From: Myxococcaceae bacterium
Lineage (GTDB): Bacteria > Myxococcota > Myxococcia > Myxococcales > Myxococcaceae
Direction of reading: 5' to 3'
Length of the DNA stretch: 30,659 bases
NCBI GenBank assembly: GCA_044230055.1
Contig: JBGART010000083.1
Span: forward strand, 1-30,659
Positions 1 to 12,598 of the stretch are shown piece after piece; position 1 is the stretch's first letter, and each line of letters opens with the position of its first letter. The notes below the pieces were generated by a model. The model did not search any database. It was not told where the DNA came from and saw nothing but the letters and a program-made list of their open reading frames with translations. Made by a program: the position numbers and the translations under genes.

Positions 1-1160
1 CGTGGCGCCCTTTCGCGAATGGCTGCGTCCAGGCGCTCTTTCGTGCGCTCGGACAGGAGCACTTCCGTGGCTCCTTCGTACGGCTCACGCCGCAGTCTGA
101 AGCCCAGGAAGTGACGTTCCTCCGGTCGGGCGACGGCGCTCTTGGAGACGTTCACCTTCAGGCGCATGCGCCTTTCCAGGAATGCCGCCACGCTTGCCAT
201 CACCCGCTGCCCCGCTCGTTCGCTGCGGACGTAGATGTTGCAGTCGTCTGCGTAGCGCACGAAACGGTGCCCGCGCTGAGAGAGCTCAGTATCCAGTTCC
301 GTCAGCACGATGTTGCTGAGCAGTGGGGAGAGTGGGCCTCCTTGCGGCACCCCCTCTTCCGTGCGCACCACCACGCCATCCGGCATCACGACTTTCGCCT
401 TGAGCATCGCGGCGATCAGTTTGAGTAGGGGCCGGTCCTCGATGCGCTCTGTGAGCCGCGCCAGGAGTCGTTGATGGTTCACCCGGTCGAAGAACTTCTC
501 TAGGTCCAGGTCCACCACCCACTCGTACCCCTCGCCGAGGTACTTTCGGGCTTCGTCGATTGCTGTATGGCAGCTTCGTCCAGGTCTGAATCCGTGGCTC
601 GAAACGTGGAACGTTGGCTCGTACAGTGGTTCGAGCTCCAGCCGTACTGCCTCCTGGACCACGCGATCGACGACGTTGGGTATTCCCAGCCCTCGTTGGC
701 CACCGCCTCCCTTTGGTATCCACACTCGCCGGATGTTCCCCGGTTCGTATGTTCCTTCGAGAAGTGCGGTTTCCAGCTCCGCCAGCACGCCTGACAGGTG
801 TTGCATCACCTGCTCGACGCTCTGTCGGTCCGGGCCAGGTGCACCCTTGTTCGCCGCCACCTTTTGAAACGCTTCGTACAACCGCTTGGAGACCTTCTCC
901 ATCGTCGGGTGCTTTGCCTGCTCCCTCTTGTGCCTTGGCTTCGGCGCCGCGCGCGTTTCAGGTGCAGGTCCGCCCGTACCCGTTACGCCGTTGGCCCCCT
1001 CGCGGGGCTTTTCTGCTGTCCCAAGATCCAGATTGAGCTGCATTGCCCCTTTGCTGACCGTGACCGCCTTCCCTCCCTCAGCTTGTTCGACTGCCTGAGT
1101 TTGGACCGCCTTTCGGCGGCCTTCCGGTACCTCGCGGTCATCTGACTTCTGCCGGGTCAT
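1..1160 (-). CDS. Group II intron-encoded reverse transcriptase/maturase (intron-encoded protein), 5'-partial in window (C-terminus lies beyond window start). Possible alternative start at 902 (MEKVSKRL...).
   Basis: Hand translation of the minus strand from ATG at 1160 gives an uninterrupted frame carrying the canonical group II RT motifs in order. Motifs: KGAPGPD (RT0), GGGQRGLGIPNVVDRVVQ, SHGFRPGRSCHTAI (RT1/2), DLDLEKFFDRVNH, GVPQGGPLSPLLSNIVL (RT4), RYADDCNIY (RT5, YADD catalytic motif). It is absent from the ORF track only because it is open at the window edge. Confidence 0.85.
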   Translation of the reverse strand, partial: MTRQKSDDREVPEGRRKAVQTQAVEQAEGGKAVTVSKGAMQLNLDLGTAEKPREGANGVTGTGGPAPETRAAPKPRHKREQAKHPTMEKVSKRLYEAFQKVAANKGAPGPDRQSVEQVMQHLSGVLAELETALLEGTYEPGNIRRVWIPKGGGGQRGLGIPNVVDRVVQEAVRLELEPLYEPTFHVSSHGFRPGRSCHTAIDEARKYLGEGYEWVVDLDLEKFFDRVNHQRLLARLTERIEDRPLLKLIAAMLKAKVVMPDGVVVRTEEGVPQGGPLSPLLSNIVLTELDTELSQRGHRFVRYADDCNIYVRSERAGQRVMASVAAFLERRMRLKVNVSKSAVARPEERHFLGFRLRREPYEGATEVLLSERTKERLDAAIRERAP

Positions 1161-1542
1161 TCGCCTTTCGTACTTTCGTTCCTACGGGCTACCCACCTTG
1201 TTGGGTGGGCGGCCCGGCAGATCTCCGTGGGTAAGCTGCGACAGATTCTGTGGCCGGGCCGTCGCCAGTACACCGGCACTTCGAAATGGAAATTGGGTTT
1301 CGTCGCCGGTCGCCGACTCACCCAGTGCCGATGCCTTAACGGCGCTTCACTCTCGTTCGACTCGTCCACACACCTATGACTTCCATCGGACGCAACTCTC
1401 GCGAGCCCCCTTCCCCATTGCTGAACCTCTACAAGCGTCCGGCGTGCCACGCTTCCCGCCTGCGCCCTTGTCTCTTTGGTGTCGGGTTCCCTCCATCAGG
1501 GCCCCGTCGTCACTTCCTTTCTGCCGCGCGTGCCACGCGCAC
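1..1542 (-). mobile_element. Group II intron (likely class C-like), 5' portion. Intron RNA domains I-III would be about 1161-1542 and the ORF lies in domain IV. The 3' end (DV/DVI) is outside the window.
   Basis: The minus-strand sequence at 1542 reads 5'-GUGCGCG..., matching the group II 5' consensus GUGYG. That position is ~380 nt upstream of the RT ORF start, which fits DI-DIII length for compact bacterial introns. It lies directly 3' of a palindromic hairpin (the repeat arm at 1543-1583), the hallmark insertion context of IIC introns. Confidence 0.6.
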
Positions 1543-1690
1543 GACTATGCGCCTGACGGCGCAACGCTCGACACGAACGGGGGTGACCCCGCGATGGTGC
1601 GGAGCCCTGGTGAGCTGTTCTCTAGGAGCGTTGCGCCTGACGGCGCGACGCTCGACGCGAACGGGGCCAACCCCGCGACGTCGCCGCTTC
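1543..1690. repeat. Copy 1 (partial/rearranged) of a MITE-like palindromic repeat family: two direct copies of the ~42-bp arm (1543-1583 and ~1626-1668) separated by the conserved tail motif gagctgttctctagga.
   Basis: Arm sequence cgactatgcgcctgacggcgcaacgctcgacacgaacgggg is near-identical to the arms at 6453-6496 and 12477-12519. Each arm has an internal palindrome (gcgttgcgcc-N4-ggcgcaacgc). Confidence 0.6.
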
Positions 1691-1716
1691 GAGAGGGGAA
1701 ACCGTGCCGCCTCTCG

Positions 1717-3834
1717 CTACCGCCTCGGGTGAGCGGCCGCCCGGCGGCGTGCCAGCACTTGGAGCCCGAGCAGCGCCGCGGCGAGGCCTGAGAGCTCCAT
1801 CCCGCCCGCGGAGCACCCGCCCTGCTTCGCAGCATCCCGGCGCACGACCGTCAGCTCCGCGCGGGCGCTCTCTCCGGCCGCGCCCCTCGCGTCCGCGAGC
1901 AACACATTTGTCCCGGGGGCCAGGCTCACCGTCACGCTGAAGCCCGCGCCGCTCACCTGCGCCGGCTCCCCATTCACTGTCACGGACGCCGGAGTGAACC
2001 CGCTCACCTCGCCGTGGACCTCGAGCGATGCACCGTCCACCGCCTGTCCGGAGGTCAACCCGAGGAAGCGCACCGACGGCGCATCCAGCTCCACATCCAG
2101 CACCGCGCGCGCCTCATCGCTCACCGTCACCGGGAGCGAGCGGCTGGAGAACCCCGCCTTGGCCACCACCAGCGTCGCGCTCAACGGCGCCGCGCTCACG
2201 TCGAGCTGATACGCGCCATCCGCTCCGCTCACCGCACCGGCCACCGGGACGCCCGGGGTCTCCTCGAGCGCCAGCGTGGCGCCCGCAACCGGGCCGCCAC
2301 CCCGGGCGCGTACCGTGCCGCGAAGGCCGGCTTTGAACGTGACCGTGCTGCGCGCCACCGTGGGGTTGCCGGCCCCGTCTACCGCGGAGAGCTCAACGAC
2401 ATTCGGCCCGGCCTTCAGCTTGAGCGCCACCGAGAAGCTGCCGTTGAGCACCGGGAGCGCCTGGGCGGCAGCGCCGTTGAGCGTGAACGACACGGTGGCC
2501 AGCGGGCCCGCGGCGTCGGACGCGGTGCCGGTCACCGTGACCCTGGCCGTCTCCAGCTGCGCGCCATCTTCCGGCGACGTGACAGCCAGCAGCGGCGCCT
2601 GAAAATCCCCAGGACCGACGGGCGTCAGCGGGACGGAGGCAGTCTCCGTCGCGCCCGCCACGAGGAACTTCGACAACGACGCCGACTGGTAGCGCTCGCG
2701 GGTGACGGTGACGGTGTGGCTCCCCGCCGGGAGCACCAGCTGGAACGCTCCGGTGAGGTCGGTGGTGGCGCTCTGACCGGAGGCAGAGACCGTCGCGCCG
2801 GCGACCACGTGCGAGGTGTCCGTCGGCCGCGCCGCGTCCAGCGCGTAGACCGTGCCCTGGAGCGTGGCCGGCGACTGCAGCACGTCGATGTTCATCGAGC
2901 CCCAGATGATGGCGCCGGCGGTGACCGTCCGGCTCACGGAGCTGGTGCTGTAGCCCGCCTTGGTGGCCGTCACGGTGTACGTCCCGGGCGGCATCAGGAA
3001 CGTGTACAGCCCGTCCGCGCCGGTGGTCTGCGTCACGCCGTTCAAGGTCACCGTGGCGCCCACCACGCGGTCGGCGGTGTTGCCCTTCTGGTAGATGGCG
3101 CCGGTCAACGTGCCGGTCTCCGTCGCCTGCGCGGTGAGCGCCTGGAGCTGCGCGAACGTCCCGTTGAAGCGCTCCAGGTCCACGTTCCCGACAATCCCGG
3201 GGACCGCGCCGGTGCTGGAGTACTGATGGAAGGTCCACTTGCTCCAGCCGGGCGGAGGCGGTGGGCAGGTGCTGTAGTAGTTGGCGAGGACGAGCGGATA
3301 GCTCCCGTACGCAGTGGACTGCACGAAGTCGCGCCAGAAGTAGAACTCCGTGTAGAGGAGCGGCGTGCGGCCGGTCCCCGCCTTCACCGCGCTGACAATC
3401 TCCGCCACGCGCGCCGCCACCGTCGCCACCGGCAGCCCGTCCGCGTCCTCGATGTCAATCATCGGCGGCAGGTCCCCCGGCTCCAACGGGACCTGGATGA
3501 GCGTGTCCGCCTGAACCTGAAGGCTCTGCGCCGGGAAGAAGCGCAGGTACGCGCCGCGGATGAGGCCCGCGGCCTTCATCCCCGCCCAGTTCGTCGTGAA
3601 GTACGGATCCGCCGAGGTGCCGCGCCCCGCCTGCGCGATGGCGAACACCTTCCCGGACGCCTTCACCTTCGACCAGTCGATGGCGCCCTGCCACCGCGCC
3701 ACGTCGATGCCCTCCAGCGTGGTGGGCCCCGCGCAGAGTTCCTGCCGCTGCGCCTCGAGCGGACGCTCGCCTTCAGCCGGCAGAGTCGTTCCGCACGCAG
3801 TGGCGACAAGAAAGACGAGGAGCGGTGAGCGCAT
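1717..3834 (-). CDS. Secreted GH25-family lysozyme (muramidase) with C-terminal tandem Ig-like/carboxypeptidase-regulatory-like beta-sandwich repeats and a MYXO-CTERM sorting signal.
   Basis: N-terminus MRSPLLVFLVATACG (signal/lipobox-like), then EGIDVARWQGAIDW...GKVFAIAQAG...GAYLRFFP, typical of GH25 muramidases. Repeated ...GTYTVTATKAGYS... / ...GSHTVTVTRERYQ... beta-sandwich repeats follow. The C-terminus GGCSAGGMELSGLAAALLGLQVLARRRAAA matches the MYXO-CTERM pattern (GGC + hydrophobic + Arg-rich). The ORF track's longer ORF to 3987 uses an upstream alternative start; ATG at 3834 fits the signal peptide. Confidence 0.8.
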   Translation of the reverse strand: MRSPLLVFLVATACGTTLPAEGERPLEAQRQELCAGPTTLEGIDVARWQGAIDWSKVKASGKVFAIAQAGRGTSADPYFTTNWAGMKAAGLIRGAYLRFFPAQSLQVQADTLIQVPLEPGDLPPMIDIEDADGLPVATVAARVAEIVSAVKAGTGRTPLLYTEFYFWRDFVQSTAYGSYPLVLANYYSTCPPPPPGWSKWTFHQYSSTGAVPGIVGNVDLERFNGTFAQLQALTAQATETGTLTGAIYQKGNTADRVVGATVTLNGVTQTTGADGLYTFLMPPGTYTVTATKAGYSTSSVSRTVTAGAIIWGSMNIDVLQSPATLQGTVYALDAARPTDTSHVVAGATVSASGQSATTDLTGAFQLVLPAGSHTVTVTRERYQSASLSKFLVAGATETASVPLTPVGPGDFQAPLLAVTSPEDGAQLETARVTVTGTASDAAGPLATVSFTLNGAAAQALPVLNGSFSVALKLKAGPNVVELSAVDGAGNPTVARSTVTFKAGLRGTVRARGGGPVAGATLALEETPGVPVAGAVSGADGAYQLDVSAAPLSATLVVAKAGFSSRSLPVTVSDEARAVLDVELDAPSVRFLGLTSGQAVDGASLEVHGEVSGFTPASVTVNGEPAQVSGAGFSVTVSLAPGTNVLLADARGAAGESARAELTVVRRDAAKQGGCSAGGMELSGLAAALLGLQVLARRRAAAHPRR

Positions 3835-6024: not shown

Positions 6025-6101
6025 CTGGCAGCGGATCGATGGATTCGAACCATCACCTCGAGATTAACGTTCTCGCGCTCTACCGATTGAGCTGGATTCG
6101 C
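6025..6101 (-). tRNA. tRNA gene or tRNA-like sequence, anticodon GTT (Asn) by position, with non-canonical features.
   Basis: Minus-strand read: gcgaatc-ca-GCTCaatcggtaGAGC-g-CGAGA-acGTTaa-TCTCG-aggt-GATGGttcgaatCCATC-gatccgc-t. The D-arm is canonical (G18G19) and the T-arm perfect (GGTTCGAATCC). Acceptor stem pairs 6/7 (A4:C69 mismatch). C at position 8 and C at position 33 (both normally U). No encoded CCA. Confidence 0.55.
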
Positions 6102-6315
6102 CACGAGTTTTCATGCTCGCGCGTTGTGGACCTTCGTCGGGAAGCCCGCCCGGCCGGCACCGAAGGTGTGAGAACCGCCGAAGCGATGGACCTGAGCAAA
6201 CGATGGCTCAGGCCAGCCAGGAGGCATCACGGGTAGCCGACGCGGCGAGGGACGGGACCTCCCATGAAAGCCTGACGGCCAGCGCTCCGCTGAATGGCGA
6301 AACACAGTCGGGCCC

Positions 6316-6540
6316 CTCCCCGTTCGCCTCGAGCGTTGCGCCGCCAGGCGCATAGTCGAGAGGTGGCGCAAACCCAGGCACGGCACTTTGCCGGTCTGTT
6401 TCGAGCAGAGCGAAGCGGCCCATGAGCCGAGCTTCGGGAGCAGTGCCGACGTCTCGACTATGCGCCTGACGGCGCAACGCTCGACGCGAACGGGGGCAAC
6501 TCCGCGAGGTGGCAGACCCCTATGAGCTGTTCTCCAGGAG
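6316..6540. repeat. Copy 2 of MITE-like element: ~45-bp terminal inverted repeats (6316-6360 and 6453-6496) flanking a 92-bp core, plus 3' tail ...gagctgttctccagga.
   Basis: Left arm ccccgttcgcctcgagcgttgcgccgccaggcgcatagtcgag is the reverse complement of right arm ctcgactatgcgcctgacggcgcaacgctcgacgcgaacgggg. The core is the reverse complement of the copy-3 core. Confidence 0.65.
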
Positions 6541-6569
6541 CGAGCTGGGGGAGGTTCAAGATCGGAGCG

Positions 6570-11728: not shown

Positions 11729-12379
11729 TTGAAGATGCGCTCGTCCACTCAACGCAAATCCCTGGCACGCCCGGCCGGAGTGCTCGCCCTCCTCTCTGGC
11801 TTTGGCTTTGTCGGCTTCAGCGGGCTGGCGTGCCTGGGCTGCCTGGTGCCGCTGGTCTCCGCCTGGGGCGTGGGCGCGCTGGCGGAACACTGGGCCGCGC
11901 TGCCCACCGCGGCGGGCCTCGGCTTCGCCGCCGTCGCTACCACCGTCTGGTTCTTCGTCATGCGCCGAAGGGAGCGCCGTACCGGCGCCGCCTGCGGCCC
12001 CGAGTGCGCCACACCGGTGGGCGTCACCGACAAGCCTGTCGCTTGCGACCTCAACGTCTTCACCCCGTCGGAGCGGGAGGAACACGGCTCCCAGTTTCTT
12101 CAGCGGGTGCTCGGCAAGGCGCGGCGGCGGGTAGAGCTCTCCGACGGACTGGCGCTGGAGTACGCGAGCGACCCCGACTTCTTCGTGCAGCTGGCGCAGT
12201 GGACGGTGAACGAGCGGCGCTGCTGCCCGTTCTTCACGTTTGAGCTGGCGCTGGAGCCGGACGGCGGAGCGCTCTGGCTCAAGCTGCGCGGGCCGCAGGG
12301 GACGCGCGAGCTGCTGCTGGCGGGGATTGCGTCGCTCCCTCCCCCGTTCGCGTCGAGCGTTGCGCCGTCAGGCGCATAG
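11729..12379 (+). CDS. Cys-motif membrane protein with MerT-like N-terminal half (two TM helices, CxxC in TM1, CGPEC in cytoplasmic loop) and a C-terminal domain containing a CC pair (ERRCCPFFTF). Candidate thiophilic-metal binding/transport protein. The 3' end runs into MITE copy 3.
   Basis: TM1 GLACLGCLVPLV resembles MerT ASACCLGPLV. The following loop AACGPECA resembles the MerT cytoplasmic Cys pair. The last 14 codons (...PPPFASSVAPSGA*) are encoded by the MITE arm, including the TAG stop. Confidence 0.6.
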   Translation: MKMRSSTQRKSLARPAGVLALLSGFGFVGFSGLACLGCLVPLVSAWGVGALAEHWAALPTAAGLGFAAVATTVWFFVMRRRERRTGAACGPECATPVGVTDKPVACDLNVFTPSEREEHGSQFLQRVLGKARRRVELSDGLALEYASDPDFFVQLAQWTVNERRCCPFFTFELALEPDGGALWLKLRGPQGTRELLLAGIASLPPPFASSVAPSGA

Positions 12380-12598
12380 TCGAGACGTCGGCAGTGCTTC
12401 CGAAGCTTGGCTCATGGGCCGCTTCGCTTTGCTCGAAACAACCCAGCAAAGTGCCGTGCGTGGGTTTGCGCCACCTCTCGACTATGCGCCTGACGGCGCA
12501 ACGCTCGAGGCGAGCGGGGAGGCGCCTGACTGAGAACAGCTGTTTCTCCGACGAAATGGCCGACCGGGGGAGGCGCCTGACTGAGAGCAGCTGTGCCC
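12337..12598. repeat. Copy 3 of MITE-like element: inverted arms 12337-12384 and 12477-12519, 92-bp core in opposite orientation to copy 2, followed by a 2x ~34-bp direct repeat tail (gggaggcgcctgactgaga[a/g]cagctgt...).
   Basis: Direct comparison with copy 2. Located between convergent genes (11729..12379 + and 12599..13762 -). Confidence 0.7.

Follow-up and report, generated by a model that had tools for sequence, protein, structure and literature searches.

What did the group II intron at the edge of contig JBGART010000083.1, from the Myxococcaceae bacterium assembly GCA_044230055.1, recognize when it inserted beside a palindromic repeat? The whole contig of 30,659 nucleotides, here called the window, was analysed. 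Base 1 is the edge of the contig and falls inside the intron, whose 5' part occupies positions 1-1542 on the minus strand. We consider it highly probable that a class C (IIC) group II intron arrived by reverse splicing after a stem-loop borne by the repeat, and that it interrupts the repeat copy concerned. The locus holds an ordinary IIC intron at a usual kind of site, with a repeat-borne hairpin as a modest twist.

The 5' boundary can be read directly from the sequence. On the minus strand the junction reads ...GGCGCATAGTC|GTGCGCGTGGCA..., with the first G of the splice-site consensus GUGCG (1538-1542) at position 1542, and the pentamer aligns with GUGCG or GUGUG in 13 related sequences. Rfam model RF02001 (group-II-D1D4-3) matches positions 1238-1408 on the same strand with 70 bits (gathering score 32; E = 3e-12). 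This model also gives 126-146 bits on IIC introns of Bacillaceae and other loci in which the triad of domain V (DV) is CGC. The initial annotation, made from the letters of the window, had placed the GUGCG end at 1542, abutting the arm of the repeat at 1543. The abutment stands, but a clean separation at 1542/1543 does not, as the G at 1542 is common to repeat and intron.

Covariation was examined in an alignment of 14 sequences: the 5' part of the intron in the window, extended by 10 exon nt, and 13 relatives from genomes and metagenomes. Four helices, comprising 19 pairs, were read off the alignment. Stem I(i) joins CGUGG (1533-1537, minus strand, as for all intron features below) to CCACG (1226-1230), the latter immediately 3' of a conserved CUUAC; 97% of its cells are paired, with both-side changes at four of five pairs. 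Stem I(ii) joins GCGGCAG (1521-1527) to CUGUCGC (1238-1244) and is 92% paired, with both-side changes at all seven pairs. It is followed by the 11-nt stretch AAAGGAAGUGA, intron nt 23-33, containing AGGAA (1514-1518), the IIC epsilon' bulge motif as defined in PMC1702495. The third helix is the 4-bp stem of a hairpin with an 8-nt loop (1302-1317) that presents exon-binding site 1 (EBS1), and the fourth is the pairing of EBS1 with intron-binding site 1 (IBS1). Across the 19 proposed pairs, 95.8% of cells are paired, against 33-48% when partners are slid by one to three columns; both sides change in 17 of the 19, and the observed values were reached by none of 500 shuffles. The three domain I helices are 92-100% paired and carry compensatory changes, which bears out both the 5' boundary and the domain I fold ahead of the open reading frame (ORF).

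IBS1 is GUC, the final three nucleotides of the 5' exon (1543-1545), and pairs with EBS1 GAC (1309-1311); all three pairs covary. With the EBS1 loop position held fixed, a full three-of-three match occurs in 16 of 17 cognate exon-intron pairs, compared to only 5 of the 86 non-cognate pairs whose triplet differs. EBS1 could be placed because this position was fixed: a free 4-nt scan was uninformative, and leaving the loop scan unrestricted proved too permissive, since 35% of the non-cognate pairs then scored at least 3. Two other candidates for EBS1 were dropped, the conserved CCCGACACC since it does not vary along with IBS1, and GUACUG (aligned to GUAAAu of the Rfam model) as it is not complementary in relatives.

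The intron-encoded protein (IEP), whose gene lies in domain IV, is represented by its first 386 codons, in an ORF at 1-1160 that begins with ATG at 1160 and stays open to base 1. It covers the reverse transcriptase (RT) domain RVT_1 over its full length (residues 148-356), scores 336.6 bits to TIGR04416 (group II RT/maturase, cutoff 300) and contains the YADD motif, in keeping with the RT/maturase of the initial annotation. The fragment aligns with residues 12-298 of the RT chain of GsI-IIC; given the domain layout of that enzyme, this extends to about motif 7, beyond the RT0-RT5 of the initial annotation. About 135 codons, for the thumb/X and C-terminal region, are absent from the contig. Homologs of 519-524 residues, 63-75% identical, have RVT_1 and GIIM (maturase) and no HNH domain, and among the 120 best homologs (mostly 519-596 aa) all have RVT_1 and GIIM only, save one with RVT_1 only. 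The maturase (X) domain of the homologs is PF08388, and its counterpart here would lie past the contig end. An endonuclease (En) domain had been expected there as well; the full-length homologs instead combine RT and X and lack an endonuclease domain, which is the usual state in class C. The IEP also bears a basic N-terminal extension of about 86 residues (residues 1-86, positions 903-1160), not found in the GsI-IIC RT, with the consensus M[TA]RQKS.DR.VP.G.RKA...GGKA..V...QL.L..GTAE...PKP. It overlaps the start of domain IV and is about 47-62% identical among homologs, versus about 75-80% for the RT part.

All the tests of class that the window allows point to class C. Among solved structures, the IEP is closest to the GsI-IIC RT (E = 3.8e-93) and the IIC RTs of Eubacterium and Roseburia (about 1e-65); the top four are all IIC RTs, with E = 3.8e-93 to 2e-64, far ahead of LtrA (IIA) at 1e-39 and the Thermosynechococcus T.el RT (IIB) at 7e-27. 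Identity to Bacillaceae IIC IEPs is 50-55%. Among the RNA features that define IIC introns, listed by Toor et al. 2006 and including the AGGAA epsilon' bulge (PMC1702495), those visible here are the 3-nt EBS1, the AGGAA bulge, the lack of EBS2 and a stem-loop in the 5' exon. For EBS2 and its partner IBS2, comparing exon positions -4 to -30 with the 382 nt ahead of the ORF gave no complement longer than 6 nt, and none exceeds chance: the shuffled mean is 6.55 nt, and 466 of 500 shuffles did equally well or better. The initial call of a IIC-like intron and the similarity search proposed for its class thus agree. The DV distal stem of IIC introns is 2 bp shorter than that of IIA and IIB introns, and in the relatives it has the short form of 3 bp (GUG/CAC). 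It occurs with an AGC triad in the clade nearest to this intron, at loci L003, L004, L006, L083, L084, L094 and L096, and a CGC triad is found in the IIC introns of loci L014, L015 and L020.

The 5' exon ends in a 6-bp hairpin, TGCGCC-GTCA-GGCGCA (1548-1563, minus strand), followed by TAGTC, so that the 3' end of the hairpin lies 5 nt from the junction. The last 48 nt ahead of the junction fold at -13.1 kcal/mol (z = -3.8), in agreement with the earlier remark that the insertion lies just 3' of a GC-rich repeat hairpin. An alternative longer stem, between the arms of two neighbouring repeat copies described below, has the same end point. At 12 of 16 related sites a clean GC hairpin, 5 bp or longer, has its 3' end 0-6 nt ahead of the junction; at loci L085 and L089, folding of 90 nt gives a stem-loop ending 4 nt before the junction. 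The insertion is intergenic. A glycoside hydrolase family 25 (GH25) lysozyme gene of 705 codons (1717-3834, minus strand) lies upstream in the same orientation, with its stop codon 175 nt ahead of the junction.

The hairpin belongs to a dispersed repeat with inverted arms. Complete elements are 192 nt long and have 47-nt inverted arms that are 94% complementary. Element A spans 6305-6496 and element B 12341-12532; B is inverted relative to A, the two are 94% alike, and B folds at -81 kcal/mol (z = -12.3). Their outer ends read CCCCCGTTCG.... Comparison within the window gives two further arm copies, at 1542-1608 and 1626-1692. Copy 1 (1543-1630, minus strand) consists of a "tail" of about 47 nt and a left arm cut at the intron, and matches 6455-6543 at element A. 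Copy 2 (1626-1692, minus strand) is a solo arm variant with the 12-bp palindrome GAGCGTCGCGCC-GTCA-GGCGCAACGCTC. The description of copy 1 as arm-tail-arm without a core is accurate for 1543-1692. The window has 6 instances of the hairpin TGCGCC-N4-GGCGCA (0.89 expected) and 5 of GGCGCATAGTCG (0 expected). Found in 30 kb as two complete copies and two partial ones, the repeat is a short, dispersed, non-coding element with terminal inverted repeats, as the definition of a miniature inverted-repeat transposable element (MITE) asks. On inspection no target-site duplication beside elements A and B is obvious, and the ORFs scanned include no transposase; a repetitive extragenic palindromic (REP) or bacterial interspersed mosaic element (BIME) type of repeat is an equally possible identity. 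Among Rfam families, the repeat gave only a far sub-threshold match to MIR918, a plant microRNA precursor (6317-6496, minus strand, 49.9 bits against a gathering score of 268), which has no biological meaning because any long hairpin gives such a match.

The intron most likely interrupts a copy of this repeat. Complete copies run ...GGCGCATAGTC-GAGA(C/G)GT... into the core, and copy 1 turns into intron at that G. Similarity to the complete copies therefore ends exactly at the first base of the intron, about 41 nt into an arm of 44-47 nt. Insertion of the intron into a repeat copy would leave just such a break, inside the element and at the very base of the splice junction. The idea that the intron split a MITE is thus supported at its 5' junction.

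On this evidence the following course of events may be proposed. A mobile IIC intron would have arrived downstream of the GH25 lysozyme gene, presumably by reverse splicing into DNA, the known route for class C introns. The stem-loop TGCGCC-GTCA-GGCGCA stands in for IBS2; five nucleotides follow, and GUC, the last three of them, pairs with EBS1 GAC in its domain I hairpin loop. The target stem-loop is the inner part of one arm of the MITE-like repeat of about 190 nt, which the intron most likely interrupts about 41 nt in. Since the class lacks an En domain, reverse splicing probably took place at a replication fork, into single-stranded DNA. Beyond the 3' end of the intron, the repeat would then resume with its core and right arm, and the 3' exon would begin GAGACGTCGG... 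/ GAGACGTCGGCA.... The intron is probably present in several copies in the genome, because the contig breaks inside it.

Several points weigh against this account. The 3' quarter of the intron (thumb/X, DV and domain VI) and the 3' exon are absent from the contig. A solo arm without a core does exist, as copy 2, so that copy 1 could predate the intron as a solo arm. The DV triad of the closest relatives is AGC, not the CGC typical of IIC, and the class assignment rests on similarity ranking together with RNA features rather than a full IEP phylogeny with classes A-F. Finally, the hairpin is followed by no run of T or U, and a terminator scan returned 0 sites. An intrinsic terminator as the target is thereby ruled out, and for the same two reasons the site is classed with the "other inverted repeats" that IIC introns use besides terminators (PMC1702495).

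Whether the repeat matters as a repeat is a separate matter, and we see even chances that the intron simply used a suitable hairpin whose membership in the repeat is incidental, the repeat being neither a preferred nor a recurrent target. Every arm carries a cognate site, on one strand per arm, made up of the hairpin, the IBS1 GUC and then G. Two such sites are unoccupied in element A (6347-6358, plus strand; 6455-6466, minus strand) and two in element B (12371-12382, plus strand; 12479-12490, minus strand), so that one of five identical sites in the window is occupied and four are empty. Relatives follow unrelated hairpins, including one intron that, with identical IEP, occupies at least seven different sites, and class C targeting hinges on structure more than on sequence (PMC7306698). 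In JGI metagenomes the occupied-site pattern had 0 matches, and the arm pattern had one chance match in unrelated sequence. Against an incidental role, EBS1 GAC fits a GTC that is invariant in five of five arms, each of which is a ready-made site; in a Planctomycetota genome, members of a repeated hairpin family precede at least five copies of a related intron; and a table in Tobes and Pareja 2006 has two of nine group II intron copies in Pseudomonas putida KT2440 as REP-associated (PMC1525189). The suggestion that the repeat family is a landing pad holds in the weak sense that each arm is a cognate site. The stronger sense, preferential homing, is not demonstrated, because one site in five is occupied and relatives sit on unrelated hairpins; the repeat is best described as a supplier of suitable hairpins. 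Further still, EBS1 in this intron lineage might be tuned to the invariant GTC after the hairpin of a lineage-specific MITE-like repeat, which would turn each arm, on either strand of any copy, into a cognate site. The two would then proliferate together: the repeat would spread landing pads over the genome, and the intron would split repeat copies and might immobilize them. We regard this as rather unlikely.

It is improbable that the intron is no longer functional and mobile, as a dead or 3'-truncated remnant would be. Bacterial genomes commonly contain truncated group II introns, and the visible part is limited to the 5' 1542 nt, about 75% of an estimated 2.07 kb. The ORF nevertheless remains open over all 386 visible codons with YADD intact, and the domain I helices and EBS1-IBS1 pairing are intact as well. 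Introns of relatives are 2033-2075 nt long, with 121-123 nt from ORF stop to 3' end, and these values imply that about 530 nt (some 135 codons, then DV and domain VI) lie beyond the contig end. The stop is the contig end itself, the usual outcome when a multi-copy repeat breaks an assembly. An exact look-up of the lysozyme found nothing but a Logan contig from the same organism (L081, SRR28480390; 4.7 kb), both ends of which fall inside repeat hairpins, at about 1636 and about 6347 of the window; because it starts and ends in this way, the arms are evidently repeated enough to break short-read assembly. The initial annotation had looked to sequence upstream of the window start, and none exists on the contig, since the window is the whole contig. 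No public sequence was found that extends it past base 1, and a protein search with the last 123 residues of the IEP fragment found best matches of 80-87% identity and no identical fragment. As a comparator for an empty site, the nearest lysozyme ortholog is 58% identical, and its syntenic locus (L098) has neither repeat nor intron. The G+C content of the intron is 0.61-0.64, compared to 0.69-0.73 in the flanking 3.5 kb (most of the contig is at 0.65-0.75), which supports a foreign origin.

A reverse order of events, in which repeat sequence was put beside a pre-existing intron by a MITE or by recombination, is very improbable: such repeats are mobile and the arm-tail-arm arrangement of copies 1 and 2 is unusual, but the junction lies inside an arm rather than at the element terminus and has the IIC geometry of hairpin, spacer and IBS1, pairing with the intron's own EBS1. 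Equally remote is the idea that an intron of another class (IIB-like D, E or F, or IIC-attC) homed sequence-specifically into the repeat: the AGC triad of the relatives is as in non-IIC introns and a repeated inverted-repeat target is superficially attC-like, against which stand the 3-bp EBS1 without EBS2, the AGGAA bulge, the 3-bp DV distal stem of relatives and the similarity of the IEP to those of Bacillaceae IIC introns. An attC site has the core sites RYYYAAC and GTTRRRY and lies in an integron or CALIN context. An attC target was ruled out, as the arm ends GTTCGCG and CGCGAAC do not fit GTTRRRY; a scan of nine ORFs between 3.9 and 15 kb also gave no integrase.

Some features of the repeat's surroundings were also recorded. 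Elements A and B bracket 5.8 kb with MerR-family, extracytoplasmic function (ECF) sigma-like, amine-oxidase/phytoene-desaturase-like and polyprenyl-synthetase genes, an arrangement that resembles a composite transposon or may be due to chance. A tRNA gene (55.4 bits; 6030-6101, minus strand) lies about 200 nt from element A. To the right of element B, at 12518-12595, GGAGGCGCCTGACTGAGA[AG]CAGCTGT is directly duplicated about 50 nt apart, and this duplication contains the small palindrome GAGAACAGCTGTTTCTC. The motif GAGAACAGCT is also found in the "tail" beside copy 1 and beside element A.

The main lesson of the locus is a confirmation of the rule by which class C introns select hairpins in DNA and not sequences. 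The Myxococcota genome concerned has 70% G+C, and in it a dispersed palindromic repeat supplies the hairpin in place of a U-tract terminator. Were the association to hold genome-wide, it would be a clean natural case of one mobile element supplying the target of another, and would help explain the spread of class C introns in genomes poor in canonical terminators. For annotation, it accounts for the contig break here and for the rearranged look of the repeat copy. The repeat context is a modest point, and the AGC triad and N-terminal extension are minor features of a subclade.

In most respects the intron is like the known IIC introns B.h.I1 of Bacillus halodurans, GsI-IIC of Geobacillus and that of Oceanobacillus iheyensis. 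It shares with them a small ribozyme matched by RF02001, a presumably En-less RT/maturase, the AGGAA bulge, an EBS1-IBS1 pairing of 3-4 bp with no EBS2, a stem-loop upstream of IBS1, and an intergenic position downstream of a gene in the same orientation. Unlike theirs, its hairpin lacks a U tract and comes from a dispersed repeat instead of a terminator, its IEP has the conserved basic extension, and its closest relatives have AGC in DV. A subset of IIC introns uses the attC repeats of integrons (PMC4424553). Those IIC-attC introns, such as S.ma.I2, are class C introns with a family of imperfect inverted repeats as a recurrent target (PMC4424553), which is the point of likeness; they differ in that the present locus has no integron context and that its element, of about 190 nt with 47-nt arms, lacks attC core sites. 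On IIC introns in MITE or REP elements, our literature search found little beyond the table entry for P. putida. The introns listed there are likewise tied to dispersed extragenic palindromic repeats, in a different host and with a different repeat family, and the comparison with that entry does not extend to exact junction geometry.

The closest relatives are found in Sorangium cellulosum So0157-2 (L083), Polyangium, and delta-proteobacterial, Gemmatimonadales and Planctomycetota metagenome-assembled genomes; a scan of GTDB representative genomes with the IEP gave a best identity of 66%. These closest relatives, at 63-75% IEP identity, have the same N-terminal extension and domain I architecture, and each follows a GC hairpin. 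They differ in EBS1 triplets and target hairpins, and none was found in the repeat family of the window. Motifs of the type GAGCG[ACT]AGCG[AG] recur at related sites, in the 5' exons of L085, L087, L089 and L002 and in the flanks of L004 and L092, and may represent another dispersed repeat that serves as a target. The Planctomycetota chromosome OZ245006 (L007-L010, around 3400-3484, matching L008 positions) has at least five related intron copies with similar 5' flanks. The flanks form long hairpins that end at the junction and show compensating differences between copies, and the common sequence begins UGUUGCG, not a clean GUGYG. By analogy, this case hints that introns and repeats enter such partnerships repeatedly in GC-rich genomes, which have few U-tract terminators.

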